Sequence record: NC_048195.1
Length of the DNA stretch: 64,000 nt
Direction: 5' to 3' (one strand)
DNA from: Escherichia phage vB_EcoM_WFC
Each line of letters starts with the position of its first letter. Position 1 is the stretch's first letter. The position numbers and the translations under genes were made by a program. The notes beneath the pieces were generated by a model. The model did not search any database, had not been told where the DNA came from, and saw nothing but the letters and a program-made list of their open reading frames with translations. Of the stretch, positions 3,151 through 45,518 are shown in pieces.

Positions 3151-5526
3151 ATGAAAATTCTTGGCATAAAACTCTGGGAGAAGACGCAACCAGAAGCCGA
3201 ACCAGCGGAGATGCCGCCAGGCGACCCATTGGCACCGTTTGAACGCCTGGAAAGGCGCGGCAGCGGTCAACGCTGGGATAAGACCGAAAGCAACCGCCCG
3301 ACCTTTAAAACCGTTGATGACTTTCCTTTATATGAGCCTGATATCAACGGGGACGGTGTTGCAATCATCAAAGGTCGCTCAGTAGATTCAGCAACCGTAT
3401 CCAAAAAAGTTATGGATAATGCTTTGAAGAACATCAGTTCAGAAGGGCAGGTTAATCCATACACAGTACCTATTCAGTTGCAAAACTGGTACTTATCGCA
3501 ATCATTTATCGGATATCAAGCTTGCGCCATCATCGCGCAGCACTGGCTGGTGAACAAGGCTTGTTCCATGGTAGGCCGCGATGCGGTCCGTAAAGGCTGG
3601 GAAGTCAAATCCAGTTCTGAGTCCGAATTATCAGTGCAGGCCAGCGAACGCCTAAAGCAAATTGATAAAGAATTTAATATCAAAGAGCACTTAGTTGAAG
3701 CCGAACGATTCAAAAATATTTTTGGTATCCGCGTCATCATATTTGATGTGCGTAGCGATGACCCAGAATACTACAGTAAACCTTTTAACATTGATGGTGT
3801 GACAAAGGGGTCTTATAAGGGGATCATTCAGGTTGACCCTTATTGGATGATGCCATTTCTGACGTCTGAAAACACCGCCGACCCTGCTTCACAGCACTTT
3901 TATGATCCAGAATACTGGGTGATCAGCGGACAACGTTATCATCGCAGCCACCTCATCATATTGCGCAACGATGAGCCAGCTGATATTCTTAAGCCGACTT
4001 ACATCTACGGCGGCATTCCTCTAACTCAGCAGATTTATGAACGCATCTATGCCGCTGAACGTACCGCTAACGAAGCACCATTGTTGGCGATGTCTAAACG
4101 TACAACGACACTACGGACCGACGTTGACAAGGCGATTGCCAATGAGCGGTCTTTTGCCGAACGCCTGATGATGTGGATTAAGTACCGCGACAACTATGCT
4201 GTTAAGGTACTTGGCCAAAAAGAAGAAATGGACCAGTTCGACATCAACTTGTCAGACTTCGACAGCATCATCATGAACCAGTACCAGCTGGTGGCCGCAA
4301 TCGCAAAAGTTCCGTCGACCAAACTGCTTGGGACTTCGCCAAAAGGCTTTAACGCCACTGGTGAATTTGAGATGGTCAGCTATCACGAAGAGTTGGAAAC
4401 GTGCCAGCAGCATGACCTGACAAAAATTCTCGACCGCCATTACAAAATCCTTCTCAAATCAGAAGGGGTGGAAGTCGACGTTAAGGTTGCATGGGAACCA
4501 GTTGGCTCACTTACTGCTACTCAACTTGCAGAAATCAACGACAAGCGAGCTAACACTGGCAAAACTCTCATTGATGCTGGCGTCATTTCTCCTGATGAAG
4601 AGCGCGACCGCATCAAAGACGACAAAAACAGCGGTTACAACCGTCTGCCGGAAGATGCAGCAGAAGAAACCCCAGGGATGTCTCCAGAGAATATGGCATT
4701 GCTTGGCAAGTCTGCTGGTGAAGTCCTGCAAGGTAAGGCTGATATTGAACAGGCAAAAGCTGATGTCGTTAAGATGGGCGGCCAGTTCTATAGCGAGACT
4801 GGTATTATGCCAGAAGGTGCCGCGCGTGGTGAGTTGGCGGAAAACCCTGACAGAGCACCTGTCGAAATTAACATGGACGATACCGATGATGAATCAAACC
4901 ATCAGGTTGATGTCCTAACGCAGTTGAAAGAAGGTCTGGAGGGTATTGCGGATTACTACCTGAAAGAAGGTCAGGATGTGGATTTTGACCCTCAAAAAGA
5001 TTCACGGTCGGTGCAGCCGTCTACCCTTCCAAGCGTCAAAGGTAATGTCGTAAACTTACGACACAACGTTGGCGAGATGGACGCAGCATCATTACCTAAG
5101 ATGAAGTTGCACGGAATGATTCTTGGGATTGAGAATCCTCGCAACAGCATCCGTAGAGGAAATAGCCTTGACGGTGAATGGGCAGTCAAGATGCCGCACC
5201 ACTACGGATTCATCAAAGGCACCAAGGGCGCGGACGGCGATGAAGTCGACTGCTTTGTTGGCACAAATCTGAAGTCGCCGAAGGTCTTTATCGTGAACCA
5301 AAACGATAACTACTCTGGCGAGTTCGATGAACACAAGTGCATGCTTGGATTCGATTCAGCAGAAGAAGCAAAAGAAGCTTATCAGGCATCATTTGGTAAC
5401 GGTTGGAACGGATTCGACTCAATCCACGAATTAGATGTGAACTCATTCAAAGAGTGGTTGAAGGGTGATTGCTCTCAAGCATACGGAGCACTCAATAATC
5501 CTACTAATTCACCGAAGCAAGGTTGA
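3151..5526 (+). CDS. portal protein with C-terminal inorganic-pyrophosphatase-like domain
   Basis: About 790 aa immediately after the terminase gene; ATG at 3151 is preceded by AGGTGG (the ORF track starts at TTG 3118). The final ~120 aa contain HYGFIKGTKGADGDEVDCFVG, which fits the family I pyrophosphatase signature D-[SGDN]-D-[PE]-[LIVMF]-D-[LIVMGAC]. Confidence 0.65.
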   Translation: MKILGIKLWEKTQPEAEPAEMPPGDPLAPFERLERRGSGQRWDKTESNRPTFKTVDDFPLYEPDINGDGVAIIKGRSVDSATVSKKVMDNALKNISSEGQVNPYTVPIQLQNWYLSQSFIGYQACAIIAQHWLVNKACSMVGRDAVRKGWEVKSSSESELSVQASERLKQIDKEFNIKEHLVEAERFKNIFGIRVIIFDVRSDDPEYYSKPFNIDGVTKGSYKGIIQVDPYWMMPFLTSENTADPASQHFYDPEYWVISGQRYHRSHLIILRNDEPADILKPTYIYGGIPLTQQIYERIYAAERTANEAPLLAMSKRTTTLRTDVDKAIANERSFAERLMMWIKYRDNYAVKVLGQKEEMDQFDINLSDFDSIIMNQYQLVAAIAKVPSTKLLGTSPKGFNATGEFEMVSYHEELETCQQHDLTKILDRHYKILLKSEGVEVDVKVAWEPVGSLTATQLAEINDKRANTGKTLIDAGVISPDEERDRIKDDKNSGYNRLPEDAAEETPGMSPENMALLGKSAGEVLQGKADIEQAKADVVKMGGQFYSETGIMPEGAARGELAENPDRAPVEINMDDTDDESNHQVDVLTQLKEGLEGIADYYLKEGQDVDFDPQKDSRSVQPSTLPSVKGNVVNLRHNVGEMDAASLPKMKLHGMILGIENPRNSIRRGNSLDGEWAVKMPHHYGFIKGTKGADGDEVDCFVGTNLKSPKVFIVNQNDNYSGEFDEHKCMLGFDSAEEAKEAYQASFGNGWNGFDSIHELDVNSFKEWLKGDCSQAYGALNNPTNSPKQG

Positions 5527-32555: not shown

Positions 32556-33416
32556 TTAAAACTCTTCTGCGTCGGTCGGAGTTTCATTGACAGGACCAGC
32601 GGCACCGCTTGCTTCTTCCTGCTTGCTGCGGTCGATGTTAACGTTACCGCCAACTACGTCGTTGTGGAATGCCTTGGCGACTTCGTACAGGCCTTTGTCC
32701 TGCACCAGACCTTCCAGCTCAAACTTCAGAACAGACCAGGTGTTGCCGTCTTTGGACTGGGATGCAGTACCCATGCGAACGATGTTCATAAAGGTCGGCG
32801 GCGTTTTCAGACCCTGCGGAGTCTGAACTTTCTTCTGCTGCAGAGCGGTCATCAGCATGCGAGACGGCTTGATCATGGAAGAAGTCAGAGACAGCATTGC
32901 GCTACCAAATTCACCAGTTTCTTCGTTCAACAGAATTACGAAGTGGTTGCGTGTATCTGCGTAGTAAGGAGATTTCTTCTCGTGCACCTTGCCGTTTTCG
33001 TCCGGCACGAATACCTTACCGTTGATCTCAACAGCGCGGCCTGCCGCGACTTCTGCATCAACGTGCTCTTTGGTGAATTCACCTTTAAAGCCTTTATCGT
33101 CGGACTCGCGACCGCCCCAAAGAATGAAGGTGCGTTTGAATGCGCAAGGGATGATTTGCACGCCTTTCTTGCCGTCATACAACTCACCAGTAACGGTGTT
33201 GTAAAGCATGCCAGCTTTTGCGCCAGGAACGTGTTTTGGATCATCTTCGTCGACCATAGGAGACATCTTCTGCAGTACGACGATAAAAGGAATGGCATAC
33301 GCATCGGCATCGGCACCTTCAAAACCAGCGCCAAAATCGGTCATGTCGACAAAATCAGCCATAGCGGACATCTGGGTGTTTTTCACTGCAACTTCGGTGG
33401 TTTCTTTCTTAGACAT
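32556..33416 (-). CDS. putative ssDNA-binding or annealing protein
   Basis: 286 aa; acidic C-terminal tail ending in Phe (TDAEEF), as in T7 gp2.5-type SSBs; position within the replication module. Confidence 0.4.
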   Translation of the reverse strand: MSKKETTEVAVKNTQMSAMADFVDMTDFGAGFEGADADAYAIPFIVVLQKMSPMVDEDDPKHVPGAKAGMLYNTVTGELYDGKKGVQIIPCAFKRTFILWGGRESDDKGFKGEFTKEHVDAEVAAGRAVEINGKVFVPDENGKVHEKKSPYYADTRNHFVILLNEETGEFGSAMLSLTSSMIKPSRMLMTALQQKKVQTPQGLKTPPTFMNIVRMGTASQSKDGNTWSVLKFELEGLVQDKGLYEVAKAFHNDVVGGNVNIDRSKQEEASGAAGPVNETPTDAEEF

Positions 33417-39790: not shown

Positions 39791-40342
39791 TTATACAGTG
39801 TACGGAGTACCGTCTTGATTCAAGCGCACGATAAACTTCAAATCAACGCCGATGATTTCACGCGTATCAAAGATCACATAGTTGTAACGACGTTGACCAG
39901 CAATGTTTGGGTTGGTGTGAGAGTCGGTCACAACTTCCTGCGCAACCTGAATGCCTTCTTCTTTAAAGAACTTGCGCCATTCAGCAAGTTCAGCGGCAGT
40001 CACGTGCATACCAAGATGGCTAACCTGATTGTCGTGCGCATCGATGTATTCGATGTTTTCGTGAATCCAGTTGCAACCTTTTGTATAGTCAAGAATTTCA
40101 AGCTCAAGAGGCTTACCAGCGCCGCCATCGGTGCCGTTGCCAGCCTGATAGTTGAAGCGCAAGTCAGCTTCGTTGGTGCAATCGCCGCGCTGACCCTTAA
40201 AGACATCAGCTTCAAATACGCGACCAGTAGCAACAACGTGATCATGGAACCATTCTGTCAGGCCGATTTTAGCCAGGAAATTCTGTGCGCGCTGAGCACC
40301 TGGAATTGACAGGGCGATTTGTTCAATTTTAAAATGTGGCAT
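39791..40342 (-). CDS. hypothetical protein (183 aa), possibly glyoxalase/VOC-like fold
   Basis: Weak His/Glu pattern only; low-confidence fold guess. Confidence 0.4.
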   Translation of the reverse strand: MPHFKIEQIALSIPGAQRAQNFLAKIGLTEWFHDHVVATGRVFEADVFKGQRGDCTNEADLRFNYQAGNGTDGGAGKPLELEILDYTKGCNWIHENIEYIDAHDNQVSHLGMHVTAAELAEWRKFFKEEGIQVAQEVVTDSHTNPNIAGQRRYNYVIFDTREIIGVDLKFIVRLNQDGTPYTV

Positions 40343-40438
40343 TTTGTTTCCTTAATTAAATATTATTGATTAATTACTGTGTTGTCTTCGTCCTGTTTCT
40401 TTTCAGGAGCGGGTGTGACAACTTCAAATGTTCGTGAT

Positions 40439-41122
40439 TTATTTACCAAATGGAATATCAGTGCCAGACATAAAGCGCCATGCGCCCGTAATTAAGATAT
40501 GGCGAATGAAGTCAGCAATTACTTGCGGCTCAGTCTCCAATCCATTCATCAATGCCTTTTTCTGGTATTCAGCGGCGTATTCAGGAGTCCAGCCGCGAGT
40601 CGCGCAAACGGCATCTTCAATCTGTTTAGACATGCCAGTGCCGCGCAACTTGTTAGGACTAATAGAGAATACCGTGATGCCGTACTTAGGCGTAAGTTCG
40701 TGAGCCATCTGCTTGCTGATCATAAGCGCAGCAGCCTTGGATGCATTATAACATAAGCTGGACGTCATAGGAATATGCGCAGCGTTGGAAACGATGTTGA
40801 TCACAAAGCCTTTGTTGTCGATAAGACTTTTCAGCGCAGCCTGAGTCGTGTTAACGAAAGAGAATGCGTTGGTGTGCATAACGCGGTTAAACTCTTCATA
40901 GTTTACATCTTCAAACCAATTGTTAGAGTTGACACCAGCACAGTTGATCAAGCCTTCAACATCATATGGGCTTAAAATTTCTTTCATCTGTTTAGCATCG
41001 CGGACGTCATATCCGTATGCTGAATCGATGCCAAGCACGTTATGACCGTAAGCGCCAAGGGTGTCAAAAATAGATTTACCAAGACCGGAATTGGAACCTG
41101 TTACAACAATTACTTTTTTCAT
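40439..41122 (-). CDS. short-chain dehydrogenase/reductase (SDR) family oxidoreductase
   Basis: 227 aa; TGSNSGLG cofactor-binding motif and YNASK catalytic YxxxK. Confidence 0.8.
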   Translation of the reverse strand: MKKVIVVTGSNSGLGKSIFDTLGAYGHNVLGIDSAYGYDVRDAKQMKEILSPYDVEGLINCAGVNSNNWFEDVNYEEFNRVMHTNAFSFVNTTQAALKSLIDNKGFVINIVSNAAHIPMTSSLCYNASKAAALMISKQMAHELTPKYGITVFSISPNKLRGTGMSKQIEDAVCATRGWTPEYAAEYQKKALMNGLETEPQVIADFIRHILITGAWRFMSGTDIPFGK

Positions 41123-41188
41123 TTATTTATCCTTTTTTGGACTTCGTTTCGATGAGGTAAATATAACTCATCGAAACGCACAAGTAAA

Positions 41189-42064
41189 CTATTTATTGAA
41201 ATTAATATTATGGGTGTTGACAAGACGTTCACACATGGCGCTATAAACACCATCATCGTGTATCGAGTCTTCATGCTTCAGGCCGCTGATTGCGAAGCGT
41301 GTAAGCTTGACAATCTTAAGCTCGAACAGGTGCCACATGTGGTAGTCTTCCGGTGTCTTCAACGTTACGCCATTAGGGAACAACACCTGCATAACCTGAC
41401 CTACCATCACAGCGTTATCGCCATAAACGGCATTGCGCTCACGGAAGGTCGCGGCCATCGCATCAAGAATATCAGCAGCGGTTGCTGGGGCTTGTTGTTC
41501 AACTTCAACAAGTTTAGTCTCTTCTTTCCCTGTTGCACTTGGATCAACTGCTAATTGTTGCACCACTTCACCTGCCTTGCAAAGATTAAATGTAAAGGCG
41601 ATTTTATTTTGCGCCATGGAATTATAATGCAAAGCTTCTTCTTGCATCCGCGCGAGTACGTCTTGTCTATCTTCAAATACGTTGATTATTCGATAATCGC
41701 CGTGTCGCAATACATACGATAACCATGCAGATTTCATAACAGTTGATGGACGCTTGTCGCCATGTTCTCTCATCTTGATTGTGAATTCATCAAAAGGGAA
41801 AACGTTGTCCAGACGTTCAAAAGTGACTTGTCTGTATTTTTCTGGTCTTGCAGTCCAATATTCAACCGCCTCACCGCGAAGTGATGCCGTCTCTACTGCT
41901 GACGCAATGTTAGGATAGAACTGATCATAACCAATGCCGCTGTGGTAATCATCATAGTCGGACAACGGGCCTGCCACCCTGATACGGTCTAAGCGCCAAC
42001 GGTCATCAAACAGAGTTCCGTCAAGGTCGAATACGTTTAAGATTTGGTTATTTTTGATACTCAT
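41189..42064 (-). CDS. HAD-superfamily phosphatase fused to an unknown C-terminal domain
   Basis: 291 aa; N-terminal FDLDGTLFDD (DxDxT) motif; C-terminal ~130 aa unassigned. Confidence 0.65.
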   Translation of the reverse strand: MSIKNNQILNVFDLDGTLFDDRWRLDRIRVAGPLSDYDDYHSGIGYDQFYPNIASAVETASLRGEAVEYWTARPEKYRQVTFERLDNVFPFDEFTIKMREHGDKRPSTVMKSAWLSYVLRHGDYRIINVFEDRQDVLARMQEEALHYNSMAQNKIAFTFNLCKAGEVVQQLAVDPSATGKEETKLVEVEQQAPATAADILDAMAATFRERNAVYGDNAVMVGQVMQVLFPNGVTLKTPEDYHMWHLFELKIVKLTRFAISGLKHEDSIHDDGVYSAMCERLVNTHNINFNK

Positions 42065-42864
42065 CCTTTTGATACTCCATCTTTGGCAACTGGATTATTG
42101 GTGATTGGCATCGCATCCCAAAACTGGATGCGCAACTCTTCTTGCTGTGCAGTGGTATCCATCCAATCACGATACCATGGGCAATGGGCCTTACCGTGAC
42201 GAGGAAATGCGCACTTACCCATACCGATGCACTGCGGCTGTAGTAAAGGATTGGCCCACGGGTGCACCTTAAGGACTTCCGCAACCATTGCACGGAATAC
42301 TTCTTGATACTCGCCTTGAGTACGCGTGCACAAGCGGTTAGAGGCCATTTGTTGTAGAGTGCGCAAGTTGAACTTTGCCATGATATGCGTTTGCATATTA
42401 GAAGGCAACACGGCACGTGCATCTTGAATCTCTGCGCCAGCCGCGCGAAGTTCTTGGTATAGGGCGTCAATGGTTGCCATTGCATCATCCCATTTCTCTG
42501 CCAGTTCAGCAGCCTTCTCGTCATGACGAGTCCATCCCTTTGGATCATCCTCTGGGTAAGTAAATTTGGCAGGACGAATCGCATCAAACGCTGATGACTC
42601 TTGAGCGCGGCTTGTGCGTTCTTGATATGCACCTGTTCGTGTGCGCACCATCTGATGAGTCATATTCTTTGATACATCAGTGATGTCAAAGATATAGTCA
42701 ACAAAGTCGAAAGGTGACTTGATGGTGTCAAGCATGTAGCGCCAGTGCTCTTGCTTCTCTGATTCTGTCATCTCAGAGACGGGCTTGCCAGTCATGCGCG
42801 TGTTCTTTGTTTCCAGCAAAAGGTCAAGTGCATCTTGGGTGTATCGAATTAATTCAACTTTCAT
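42061..42864 (-). CDS. flavin-dependent thymidylate synthase (ThyX)-like protein with divergent signature motif
   Basis: 267 aa; SPFDFVDYIFDI ... VRTRTGAYQERTSR parallels the ThyX region around the RHRxxxxxxxS motif, but His is replaced (RTR) and the distal residues differ. Confidence 0.6.
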   Translation of the reverse strand: MKVELIRYTQDALDLLLETKNTRMTGKPVSEMTESEKQEHWRYMLDTIKSPFDFVDYIFDITDVSKNMTHQMVRTRTGAYQERTSRAQESSAFDAIRPAKFTYPEDDPKGWTRHDEKAAELAEKWDDAMATIDALYQELRAAGAEIQDARAVLPSNMQTHIMAKFNLRTLQQMASNRLCTRTQGEYQEVFRAMVAEVLKVHPWANPLLQPQCIGMGKCAFPRHGKAHCPWYRDWMDTTAQQEELRIQFWDAMPITNNPVAKDGVSKG

Positions 42865-42877
42865 TTTAATTATCCTA

Positions 42878-43324
42878 TTAACGGTAGTTAACTAGTTGCT
42901 GATCACCAGAGAAGGTGCAATGATAAACGAATTGTGCGTTATAAAGCAACTGAAAACTTTTCTTTGGTTCATTATTAGAACTCATTGATGTAAAGATTTC
43001 TGCACCAGAACGGTTTTCACCAATAAGGTTGATAAAGCCGCCAGTTGAACGAGGTTGGACGAAAGTGAAACGTTGCATCCACGGAGTGCGGTTGGCACCT
43101 TTCCCTGTGAATCCCTGAATCTGAATATTCAGACCTTCTTGCTCGTTCACACCGATGTAAGTGGTAATTGTTGCGCCAGTCGTCGCTGCAGTCTTGCCGT
43201 CCATCGCTTCGCAATCGTAAACAGCGATTGAATCGGAAGTACGGACAGCGGCTTCAGTCGCTTCCATATACATGGTTCCGAGAATAGCAGTTGCGGCAAG
43301 CGCGATTCCAGTGATGCGTTTCAT
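42878..43324 (-). CDS. secreted protein with N-terminal signal peptide
   Basis: 148 aa; MKRITGIALAATAILGTMYMEA then polar mature part. Confidence 0.45.
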   Translation of the reverse strand: MKRITGIALAATAILGTMYMEATEAAVRTSDSIAVYDCEAMDGKTAATTGATITTYIGVNEQEGLNIQIQGFTGKGANRTPWMQRFTFVQPRSTGGFINLIGENRSGAEIFTSMSSNNEPKKSFQLLYNAQFVYHCTFSGDQQLVNYR

Positions 43325-43389
43325 TTTCGTTTCCTCTATGAGTTCTGCTTCAATGATTAAAGTATACGCCCATTGAAGCAGAAAGCAAA

Positions 43390-44385
43390 TTATTTATTAG
43401 CAATATAAGCAAATTTTTGATAGTTATTTGCTTTGATGAGTTTTTCAACTTCAGCAAGGTCATGGGCGACGTCATCAAGCAAAATGTTTCGCCAAGTAGC
43501 GAATCGACCGACACTAAATACGTTCAAATCCATGGTCAGTTGCAGGAGTAGGGCGTGTCGTAAGTCTTTCGGAATGTCGACAATCTTGCCATACTTCTGG
43601 TCAACCTTTTCAACTTCTTCAAGAGCGATGTCACTCCATGAGAGGCCAAAAGCCGTCAATACTTCGTCAACTTCTGCACGCAACTTAATGTCACGGTAAC
43701 GAGTAATGCCGCCAGCGGCTTCAACTGCGGCTTCACTTACGCTAACCAAAGGAATTGTTTCAATGATCAGCGTGTCACCAGTGATTGATGCGCGGTAAGT
43801 TCTGACGGAGTAGTCAGGAAAGTAAATGGTTTGATACAGTTCACACTTGCGTTTAATCTTAAAGCGGTAAACACGAATGTTTGCCTTATCGAATGAGAAA
43901 TCAATCTTTTGATCAATCCCAGCAAGCTTCATCATGACTGGCAGCGGCGATGTGTTGATGATTGGCGTCTCGCTATAGCCGCAAAGCGTGTCGACCGGAG
44001 TATTAAAGAATATACGGTCACCCAGTTTATCGACAAGCTGATCATAAAAGTCATCAGGCGCAATATAACGCGTTGCAGTTTTAAGCTTCATGATTGAACG
44101 GCTGCCAAACTGATTGGTGACCTTCATGGAATACATATTGGCAAGGTTGATTGGGCAATGGTCGTGATAGTAGTTACCGCGAAAATACACAGCCTTGTCA
44201 ACTGTCACGGCCTTAAAAGGGATTCCGGTAATACGGCTTACTTCTTCGCCGCGAAAGCGTAGCAGTGCCTTGTGCTGTGGCGCTCGCTCCCCTGCTTCGT
44301 ACACAATAGAGTTCGGGAAGTGACACGCGGTAATAAGTCCTGCCAAACCGCCGCCGATAATCATTACAGGTTGTTTCATGTTCAT
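43390..44385 (-). CDS. FAD/NAD(P)-binding oxidoreductase
   Basis: 331 aa; N-terminal dinucleotide-binding motif VMIIGGGLAGL. Confidence 0.7.
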   Translation of the reverse strand: MNMKQPVMIIGGGLAGLITACHFPNSIVYEAGERAPQHKALLRFRGEEVSRITGIPFKAVTVDKAVYFRGNYYHDHCPINLANMYSMKVTNQFGSRSIMKLKTATRYIAPDDFYDQLVDKLGDRIFFNTPVDTLCGYSETPIINTSPLPVMMKLAGIDQKIDFSFDKANIRVYRFKIKRKCELYQTIYFPDYSVRTYRASITGDTLIIETIPLVSVSEAAVEAAGGITRYRDIKLRAEVDEVLTAFGLSWSDIALEEVEKVDQKYGKIVDIPKDLRHALLLQLTMDLNVFSVGRFATWRNILLDDVAHDLAEVEKLIKANNYQKFAYIANK

Positions 44386-44519
44386 TTGTCCTTTGTGGGT
44401 GATATGAGAAGTATAATAGCTAAATTATTTTACAGCAACAAGTCATTTCTATTTAGTACAGACGAAAAAAGACCCACAACAAGTGTGGGTCAATTACCGC
44501 TATATAACCGTCCTACAGG

Positions 44520-45365
44520 TTATTCCGCTTGATCACCGTCTTCAGCATCGTCGTTGGATTCAACATCGACAAACTCGATGTGGCCCATCTCTTCCAGCTT
44601 GCTCAGGTAGGAGCGAACGGAAGCGCCAAACAGTTGATCTTTAACTTTTTCGCCCAGCTCATCGATAGACTGTGCCACACCAACTTCGCCTTCTTTGATC
44701 GCCGCCAGAACGCGTCCACGGGTGGAATGCTCTTGCGGCTGGCTCAGGCCATTGCCAGTGTAGATGAAGTGAGTGGCTTTTGCACGACGCTGACCGTTTG
44801 CCTTTTTAGCAGCCTTACGTTCTGCGATGGCTTTGCGACGTTCTTCAGCTTCTTTCTTACGCTGTTCTTTCTGCTGTTCTGCAGCTTCTTTCGCCGCAAT
44901 CTTAGCAGCTTCACGCTCTGCCTTGCGTTTCGCTTTAGCTTCTTCTTTGGCCTTCTCTTTTTCGGCCTTCGCTGCAGCACGGGCTTGATCACGCTCTGCT
45001 TTCTTGGCCGCAGCCTGCTCAGCTTTCAGGCGCTTGGCTTCTTCTTTAGCCTTTGCCTTTTCGATTTCTTTTGCTGCTTTAGCGGCTTCACGCTCTGCTT
45101 TCTTAGCAGCAGCCTTTTCTGCACGCTCTTTAGCTTTCTTAGCTGCTTCTTCAGCACGCTTCTGAGCCTTCTCATCAGCAGCCTGCTTGCGTTTCAGCGC
45201 AGCTTCTTCACGCTTGGCTTGTTTTTCCTGCTCACGCTTCTGGCGTTTTTCTTCGGCTTCTTTCTTTTTAGCCAGGCGTTTTTCTTCAGCCACGCGACGA
45301 CGTTCTGCTGCGGCTGCTTGTTTTTCTTCTTTAGATAATACTTTGATTGCTTCGGCCATATTCAC
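44520..45365 (-). CDS. highly charged Lys/Glu/Ala-rich protein (predicted long single alpha-helix) with small C-terminal domain
   Basis: 281 aa; about 200 residues of KAEKEAAKKA-type low complexity, then an ~80 aa globular tail and acidic end. Confidence 0.55.
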   Translation of the reverse strand: MNMAEAIKVLSKEEKQAAAAERRRVAEEKRLAKKKEAEEKRQKREQEKQAKREEAALKRKQAADEKAQKRAEEAAKKAKERAEKAAAKKAEREAAKAAKEIEKAKAKEEAKRLKAEQAAAKKAERDQARAAAKAEKEKAKEEAKAKRKAEREAAKIAAKEAAEQQKEQRKKEAEERRKAIAERKAAKKANGQRRAKATHFIYTGNGLSQPQEHSTRGRVLAAIKEGEVGVAQSIDELGEKVKDQLFGASVRSYLSKLEEMGHIEFVDVESNDDAEDGDQAE

Positions 45366-45518
45366 AGTCCTTAAATAAATTAGTTTATTTTATATTCCCC
45401 GTTTGGGATAACTTAATTATGCCTTCAGTCGCCGCCAGTAGCAACTAAAAACTATGGCGGCAATGCCACTTTAATTAAACTGATTTTCAGTTTTATTTTT
45501 CGTAAATTTACGTCAACA

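Follow-up and report, generated by a model that had tools for sequence, protein, structure and literature searches.

The 64,000-nucleotide stretch of Escherichia phage vB_EcoM_WFC (NC_048195.1) analyzed here, hereafter the window, contains an open reading frame (ORF) at 44520-45365 on the minus strand that encodes an extremely charged protein rich in lysine, glutamate and alanine. The initial annotation of the window, made from its letters alone, had picked out this ORF without stating its strand; the ORF is real, but the GTG start at 45365 that its coordinates implied did not hold. This GTG lies just 2 nt from the AAGGA Shine-Dalgarno sequence, whereas the ATG at 45359 lies 8 nt from it; therefore, the ATG is the likely start, and the coding sequence (CDS) is 44520-45359 (minus strand, 840 nt including the stop codon, 279 aa). 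A CDS of the same length was found in all seven annotated GenBank records whose coordinates were examined (Bas99, Mansfield, Ro157lw, ECO71P1, RCIP0319, WFH and AV128), and a ribosome-binding site is annotated in phage Mansfield at the place equivalent to AAGGA. Combined, the results leave little doubt that this is a genuine, independently transcribed and very highly expressed gene of the Wifcevirus middle region, whose product has a capped helix of ~176 residues with an 11/3 charge ridge, a basic RRAKATH arm, an orphan winged-helix (WH) domain and an acidic tail (Table 1).

The gene is flanked by a Dda-like helicase gene on one side and by ThyX, PNK and DNA polymerase genes on the other, which agrees with its earlier assignment to the replication module. 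Over 1.3 kb, the gene region is 99.8% identical to Escherichia phage vB_Eco4M-7 and 97-99% identical to 26 further records, all of them from Wifcevirus-type E. coli and Shigella myophages of ~68 kb. The protein matched PHROG 4765 (function unknown) along its full length (E 2.4e-84, with residues 1-279 aligned to positions 14-271 of the 294 in the profile). A Pfam scan of the 279-aa protein gave no match at E<=0.1, and a Rfam scan in and around the gene on both strands matched no RNA family.

Table 1. Features of the gene and its product, in window coordinates (AF2, AlphaFold2 model).
Feature	Position	Strand	Basis
Predicted sigma70-like promoter: -35 TTGCTA, 17-nt spacer, -10 CATAAT	45416-45444	-	consensus scan
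Shine-Dalgarno AAGGA	45368-45372	-	read from sequence
N-terminal peptide MAEAIKVL and helix N-cap box (L8-S9-K-E-E12-K13)	45321-45359	-	cap motif in homologues; AF2
Residues 10-185, uninterrupted helix of ~26 nm (~176 residues) with no heptad apolar seam	44805-45332	-	AF2 and charge periodicity
Residues 186-196, helix-breaking linker KANGQ and basic arm RRAKATH	44772-44804	-	R192/R193 invariant or nearly so
Residues 197-264, orphan winged-helix domain b-H1-b-H2-H3-b, recognition-type helix VRSYLSKLEE	44568-44771	-	AF2
Residues 265-279, disordered acidic tail DVESNDDAEDGDQAE	44523-44567	-	composition; AF2
Rho-independent terminator GACCCACA-CTTGT-TGTGGGTC then TTTTTT	44461-44491 (44491-44471 plus T-run)	-	29 nt past the stop codon
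Antisense ORF, 269 aa, not a gene	44529-45338	+	codon register with the real gene; allelic variation

Expression signals, abundance and selection

The predicted promoter ends, at its -10 element, 56 nt from the ATG, and the arrangement TTGCYW-17-[CGT]ATAAT recurs 48-65 nt 5' of the ATG in 11 of 12 diverse homologue loci. Terminators are annotated in phages Mansfield, WFH and LBL3, and a GC hairpin with a T-run, of unrelated sequence, lies 3' of the gene in nearly all distinct homologue loci. As judged from these sequence features, the gene is its own transcription unit, with a predicted promoter and terminator that are conserved in position though their sequences diverge.

Other elements were noted around the promoter. 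The leaders of LBL3 (L003), Gekk3-15 (L004) and three further homologue loci (L009, L016 and L021) carry TCACAGGC just 3' of the -10 element, followed by a short GC palindrome (e.g., GGCCAATAAGCC and GGCCGATTGGCC), and the window has CCCAAACGGGG at the equivalent place (45397-45407); a 5'-terminal stem-loop of the kind seen in the homologue leaders could stabilize the mRNA. Between the stop codon of the Dda-like helicase gene and the promoter, a weak hairpin with a T-run (GTGGCATTGCCGC...AGTTTTT, 45454-45469, minus strand) may be a leaky terminator of the helicase transcript. Additionally, in the upstream regions of a His-rich clade of homologues (L015, L021 and L026), a conserved ACTGAACACT, located ~23 nt 5' of a TATAAT/TAAAAT -10 element, takes the place of the -35 hexamer; this motif could serve as a promoter element specific to the phage or as the site of an activator.

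The fraction of E. coli-optimal codons (Fop) in the gene is 0.65 against a median of 0.47, ranking third among the 49 long ORFs of the window just behind the major head protein, and all 25 Arg codons are CGT or CGC. The region is also translated, since its near-identical counterpart in vB_Eco4M-7 (vB_Eco4M-7_83, 'TolA protein', 31.1 kDa) was detected by mass spectrometry (MS) with 7 peptides, 25.8% coverage and a score of 1197.6 (Necel et al., PMC7048862). In that CsCl-gradient-purified preparation it ranks sixth of 33 proteins, above portal, capsid and sheath, and the same protein was detected more weakly in ECML-117 (PMC7048862). Clearly non-structural proteins were present in the same vB_Eco4M-7 preparation as well, namely a glyoxalase-like protein, a helicase and a 3-oxoacyl reductase (PMC7048862). 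The coverage of the protein probably comes mostly from its C-terminal third, because trypsin would cut the K/R-rich helix into tiny peptides.

Two other non-structural ORFs of the window, at 32556-33416 and 39791-40342 (both minus strand), are extremely codon-optimized too (Fop 0.68 and 0.65) and match, by size and position, a 31.2-kDa protein without assigned function (_70) and the glyoxalase-like protein (_77) of vB_Eco4M-7. Both were likewise detected by MS in the CsCl-purified preparation, where they would be either packaged or a carry-over of the most abundant intracellular phage proteins.

The 11 Wifcevirus alleles of the gene are each exactly 840 nt long, with no indels, and 64 of their 68 variable sites fall at codon position 3. 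Synonymous sites number 63 against 5 non-synonymous ones (K/Q at codons 162 and 169, P/S at 268, D/E at 270), and the gene is under strong purifying selection. The long ORF on the opposite strand had been dismissed by the initial annotation as an artefact of composition, and the allelic variation bears this out: 59 of the 68 sites would be non-synonymous in its frame and phage Mansfield has an additional stop there, which rules it out as a gene. The sense strand contains a single TTA/CTA/TCA codon, at codon 8, and the antisense frame therefore stays open. Alternative frames of the low-complexity helix region also remain open in a Pbunavirus-like locus (L022, IMGVR_UViG_2974715105_000001, ~3530-4000), where the frame of the helix region is shifted and its upstream part reads as a P/R/K/S-rich peptide, probably through a sequencing frameshift.

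Architecture of the protein and conservation of its charge pattern

The 279 residues include 65 A, 51 K, 50 E, 25 R and 17 Q, concentrated in a run in which K, E, R, A, Q and D make up 94% of residues 11-197 (net charge +27) and 94-95% of residues 10-185; residues 198-262 are of ordinary composition. The dominance of K, E, A, R and Q that was first reported for this run stood, at a length of about 180 rather than some 200 residues. The KAEKEAAKKA-like repeats described within it are likewise real as a periodic and compositional pattern but not as duplicated DNA units: Tandem Repeats Finder returned just one 15-nt unit in two copies, so that the repetitiveness is compositional and periodic and not the product of recent duplication.

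Residues 10-185 were modelled by AlphaFold2, from an 11-sequence alignment, as one continuous alpha-helix with a predicted local distance difference test (pLDDT) score of 80-96, in line with the long single helix proposed from composition. This segment has no Gly and no Pro, is 60% charged and 31% Ala, and carries 65 K/R against 40 E/D. Its start is marked by a capping motif, hydrophobic-[ST]-x-[EA]-[EQ]-K, which recurs at the same point in many homologues. Large apolar residues occupy just 8 of the 176 positions and apolar power at a period of 3.5 is 0.17, i.e., no heptad signal; a canonical left-handed coiled coil is therefore unlikely. In one clade of homologues, a His-rich extension (e.g., MSHGHHHH and MSHAHGHHHNHEHH) that is absent from the window protein precedes the helix (loci L015, L020, L021, L026-L028 and L032; proteins P0008-P0012 and P0021), and its composition suggests metal binding.

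The charges of the helix repeat with a period of 3.67 residues (11/3), with a power of 18.8 compared to a shuffle maximum of 4.2+-1.4 that reached the observed value in 0 of 300 shuffles. A peak at 3.66-3.70 was found in 14 of 16 homologues with helix sequences that can otherwise hardly be aligned. Around the helix, the resultant of K/R is directed ~180 degrees away from that of E/D, and in most homologues Ala groups with the acidic residues (for the window protein, an Ala resultant of 0.01 was obtained at P=11/3). On the modelled helix, K and R form a continuous cationic ridge, with E, D and A on the face across from it. When the phase of this ridge is measured backwards from the RRxKATH anchor, it proves conserved among 31 homologues (circular R 0.82-0.86 over 44-110 residues), with agreement near the anchor owing in part to shared ancestry; the few outliers are shifted by about one residue's worth of angle. 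Opposite-charge pairs are in slight excess (i+4: 36 observed vs. 28.4+-4.0 shuffled, z 1.9; i+3: z 1.5), and same-sign pairs at i+7 and the 3.67 periodicity are stronger signals than these. The cap-to-anchor length ranges across the family from 121 to 188 residues, with short forms of ~50-60, and the possibility that lengths step by multiples of 11 was not supported, as the 121-188 lengths have no preferred residue modulo 11.

Beyond the helix, the model agrees with the small C-terminal domain and acidic tail that the initial annotation had described, and it assigns to the domain a fold that had gone unrecognized. The predicted elements (b197-200, H213-222, b229-231, H232-238, H248-257 and b261-264) follow the winged helix-turn-helix (wHTH) topology H1-b-H2-H3-b, with structural matches to known WH domains including those of BlaI/MecI, Fur/PerR, ArsR, SelB, PriA, RPA32C, ORC2, ScpB and MotA. 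Sequence and profile searches of PDB, Pfam and NCBIfam with the C-terminal domain found no relative; a Foldseek search of PDB with the full-length model gave no significant match (best E 0.24, a MetAP insert), and a fold search of BFVD returned family members only. Residues 263-279 have a net charge of -8, the pLDDT of residues 269-279 is below 50, and most homologues carry an acidic tail.

Conservation of the C-terminal region, one of the checks proposed earlier, is wide. A tblastn search with the C-terminal 95 aa matched 355 phage records from Wifcevirus, ~290 Pseudomonas Pbunavirus (54% identity) and Serratia, Salmonella, Pantoea, Xanthomonas, Burkholderia and Aeromonas phages, the homologues being annotated as hypothetical, 'TolA' or 'putative structural protein'. 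An exhaustive search with a profile of 273 positions, helix columns included, collected 49 proteins among 1.84 billion representatives, and a word-indexed protein search with the C-terminal domain alone gave 4 matches. The C-terminal domain is 50-64% identical among homologues, about as conserved as the helicase.

A more distant group keeps the WH signature RR...G.S.PQ..S.RG.V...R.[YF].QKL.E.GH with an unrelated N-terminal region in place of the long helix. Because distant relatives retain the WH domain without this helix, the sequence comparison indicates that the WH domain is the conserved core of the family and the long helix a lineage-specific elaboration. Nine residues are invariant or nearly so across both groups (R192, R193, G204, S212, R214, R249, K254, L255 and H260), and the invariant Arg, Lys, Ser and His positions are found in the basic arm, at the N-terminal end of helix 1 and on helix 3. 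One distant relative (P0050) had no match in the phage collection, nor in IMG/VR as a single query, whereas an alignment query of IMG/VR succeeded.

The order Dda-like helicase, target gene, UGM-like flavoprotein (phrog_4828) was found at essentially every locus with enough flanking sequence. In IMG/VR locus L046, a WH relative that lacks the helix occupies the same slot directly 5' of phrog_4828, followed by PNK/phosphorylase, a FabG-like reductase and a pyrophosphatase. The downstream genes on the minus strand of the window (39791-44385) recur together beside the WH gene even in this distant high-GC contig (3480-7852); the set comprises the flavoprotein (43390-44385), ThyX, PNK/HAD phosphatase, a FabG-like SDR (40439-41122) and a glyoxalase-like protein (39791-40342). 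In L046 the SDR is immediately followed by a MazG-like pyrophosphatase, which in Bas99 is encoded farther down the block of genes on this strand. Taken together, the recurring genes have the look of a nucleotide or DNA-modification pathway and not of a mere supply of dNTPs. Within the block, 3' of the flavoprotein gene, an ORF of 148 aa (42878-43324, minus strand) has a signal-peptide-like start (MKRITGIALAATAILGTMYMEA) and no Pfam or PHROG match; by its sequence, its product could be a secreted or envelope protein in the midst of nucleotide-metabolism genes.

Candidate functions

As to function, the initial annotation had offered only a general role, that of a rigid spacer or of a module interacting with nucleic acid or membranes. 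The preferred reading, with a probability of roughly 0.4, is that the protein is an abundant, stoichiometric and non-enzymatic architectural protein that associates with nucleic acid in the replication and nucleotide-metabolism module. This reading is favored because basic and phosphate-contacting residues are conserved in the WH domain and arm, the helix carries a cationic ridge, the protein is abundant, and the annotation of the Bas99 genome contains no single-stranded DNA-binding protein (SSB) or histone-like protein. The WH domain and basic arm would anchor the protein on phage DNA through residues of basic or phosphate-contacting types (R192, R193, S212, R214, R249, K254 and H260), and the rigid helix, held in fixed register to this anchor, would present its K/R ridge to the same or a neighboring polyanion. 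Alternatively, the ridge might zip laterally onto the E/A face of other copies, such that the coat is extended or bridged. Like the acidic tails of HMGB1 and of the phage SSBs gp32 and gp2.5, that of the target may compete with nucleic acid for the ridge or recruit partner proteins. The presence of the protein in CsCl-purified phage preparations would then reflect its abundance, its association with DNA or genuine packaging.

Several points weigh against this interpretation. Nucleic-acid binding by members of the family is itself a prediction from sequence, the WH domain is net acidic (-3), and WH folds can bind protein. Most homologues are near-neutral or net negative overall, with a helix of only +6 to +11 outside Wifcevirus, and such a low net charge is unlike that of polycationic histone-like proteins. 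A straight helix cannot track the groove of DNA. Moreover, the MS scores from CsCl-purified particles and the 'putative structural protein' labels in Pbunavirus fit a role in the virion at least equally well.

A bolder form of the architectural interpretation is a viral chromatin-like family, in which a WH anchor positions a rigid helix of 18-29 nm whose conserved cationic ridge, with the anionic and Ala face across from it, allows copies to zip laterally along or between duplexes, coat or bundle the replicating genome and possibly travel in the capsid. We regard it as improbable; if it were true, Pbunavirus-like myoviruses, widely used therapeutic phages among them, would have a previously unrecognized kind of viral chromatin-like protein.

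Among the competing explanations, a true component of the virion survives best, although it is considerably less probable than the architectural role. The protein could be an internal head protein that is packaged together with the DNA or ahead of it and is possibly ejected into the host, or else a flexible fibre or decoration that goes unseen in symmetrized cryo-EM maps. The MS score above those of portal, major capsid and sheath in CsCl-purified vB_Eco4M-7 and the weak detection in ECML-117 speak for it, as do the labels 'putative structural protein' or 'structural protein' in LBL3, JG024, KPP12, phiKT28, tabernarius and others. The Pbunavirus 'structural' labels are said to go back to a virion proteome of PB1-like phages by Ceyssens and colleagues in 2009. 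The homologue is absent from the list of 31 proteins identified by MS in DNA-emptied ghosts of Pbunavirus SCUT-S1, where its ORF number was deduced from gene order and protein masses; as the neighboring helicase is listed, this would fit a DNA-associated internal protein. However, the gene has a sigma70-like promoter and belongs to the replication and nucleotide-metabolism block, far away from the head and tail genes and on the other strand. Clearly non-structural proteins share the preparation, and because those detected are the most codon-optimized (32556-33416 and 39791-40342, together with the target), carry-over of abundant proteins is suggested. Additionally, the main text of the cryo-EM atlas of Pbunavirus Pa193 does not place the target among the virion proteins left unaccounted for. 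Papers on JG024, KT28, FoX and other phages contained nothing specific on this protein.

An accessory of the replisome or of recombination is a somewhat weaker candidate. Here the WH domain, the acidic tail or both would bind the Dda-like helicase or the polymerase, with the helix serving purely as a spacer or tether, rigid and 26 nm long; alternatively, the protein would substitute for an SSB-type organizer. The latter is opposed by the lack of an OB fold. A spacer would need something to space, whereas the N-terminus of the helix bears no conserved domain, only 9 residues in the window protein and a variable stretch rich in His in other members, and the helix varies from 121 to 188 residues, with ~50-60 in the short forms. 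The linkage conserved in L046 is also to the flavoprotein/PNK module, with no helicase found in the 2.7 kb upstream.

It is more doubtful still that the protein is a sequence-specific transcription factor, such as an activator of the non-sigma70 middle and late promoters known in Pbunavirus 14-1. The WH fold would suit this role, but expression and codon bias on a par with the major capsid protein are atypical for a regulator, and to our knowledge a charged helix of 176 residues is without precedent in such transcription factors; no target motif was seen either, although no search aimed at one was made. Finally, a TolA homologue acting in the cell envelope has virtually no chance of being correct, as the annotation 'TolA protein' (vB_Eco4M-7, FEC19, ECML-117, Ro157lw, Epa7/39, MTx and BcepF1) and a similar A/K/E composition are all that favor it and it is refuted at the level of homology.

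The ORF and its peptides had been recorded before; what this analysis adds is the recognition of the winged helix, a rejection of the TolA name, an expression cassette that is self-contained and the conserved 11/3 charge ridge. The protein is among the most highly expressed of a lineage (Wifcevirus, Pbunavirus and relatives on Serratia, Pantoea, Xanthomonas, Burkholderia and Aeromonas) from which many phages for therapy and biocontrol are drawn, and the labels 'TolA' and 'structural protein' are misleading. Knowing its binding target would fill a gap in the biology of replication and genome organization in phages without an annotated SSB or histone-like protein. The conserved 11/3 ridge, held in register with a folded domain across more than 100 poorly conserved residues, represents selection on the geometry of a 'low-complexity' sequence, and the helix may be of interest to engineers of rigid helical linkers.

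Comparison with known systems

The domain II of E. coli TolA is likewise a long helical region rich in Ala, Lys and Glu, which is where the resemblance to the phage protein ends. A BLASTP comparison with K-12 TolA gave E=0.17 with compositional adjustment, confined to the low-complexity region, and scans of Pfam and NCBIfam matched no TolA model. The maximum 19-residue Kyte-Doolittle hydropathy is 0.61 compared to 2.45 (at residue 14) in E. coli TolA, so that a transmembrane anchor is lacking; the C-terminal domain is predicted to fold as a winged helix and not as TolA domain III, and domain II is without the 3.67 charge periodicity of the phage helix (power 0.2).

The WH domain has no sequence relation, in Pfam, NCBIfam or PDB, to the wHTH proteins of the MarR, ArsR, BlaI-MecI and Fur types or to the WH-like insert of MetAP2/Ebp1. 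It differs from them in that its sheet takes its third strand from the N-terminal segment that follows the basic arm and not from a wing hairpin; it is also net acidic and lacks a repressor-type dimerization domain.

In its high expression, in having an acidic C-terminus that is disordered and in lying within the replication module next to a Dda-type helicase, the phage protein resembles T4 gp32 and T7 gp2.5, but their OB fold is absent from it, the model consisting of helix and winged helix with no beta-barrel. Linker histone H1, with its WH domain and Lys/Ala-rich tail, and SPO1 TF1 resemble it in combining a small globular domain of DNA-binding type with a long Lys/Ala-rich extension at very high expression. 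The tails of H1 and of bacterial H1-like proteins, however, are polycationic and poor in acidic residues, whereas the phage helix has 65 K/R against 40 E/D and that of most homologues carries only +6 to +11.

The 11/3 periodicity and A/K/E-rich composition are shared with group 3 late embryogenesis abundant (LEA) proteins, apolipoproteins and alpha-synuclein. Unlike these 11-mer amphipathic helices, the phage helix is without an apolar face (8 large hydrophobic residues in 176), an LEA_4 match in Pfam or an exact repeat unit. The phage helix also resembles the single alpha-helices (SAHs) of the ER/K type (myosin VI/X, caldesmon and MAP7) and engineered rigid A(EAAAK)nA linkers, which are also long, made of E, K, R, A and Q, free of Gly and Pro and without a hydrophobic seam, and which, like the phage helix as predicted, form one isolated helix tens of nm in length. 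SAHs typically show an E4K4-like mixing of charges and usually bridge two domains; the phage helix, only ~60% charged and 31% Ala, has one free end and segregates its K/R and E/D residues with an 11/3 period onto opposite faces.

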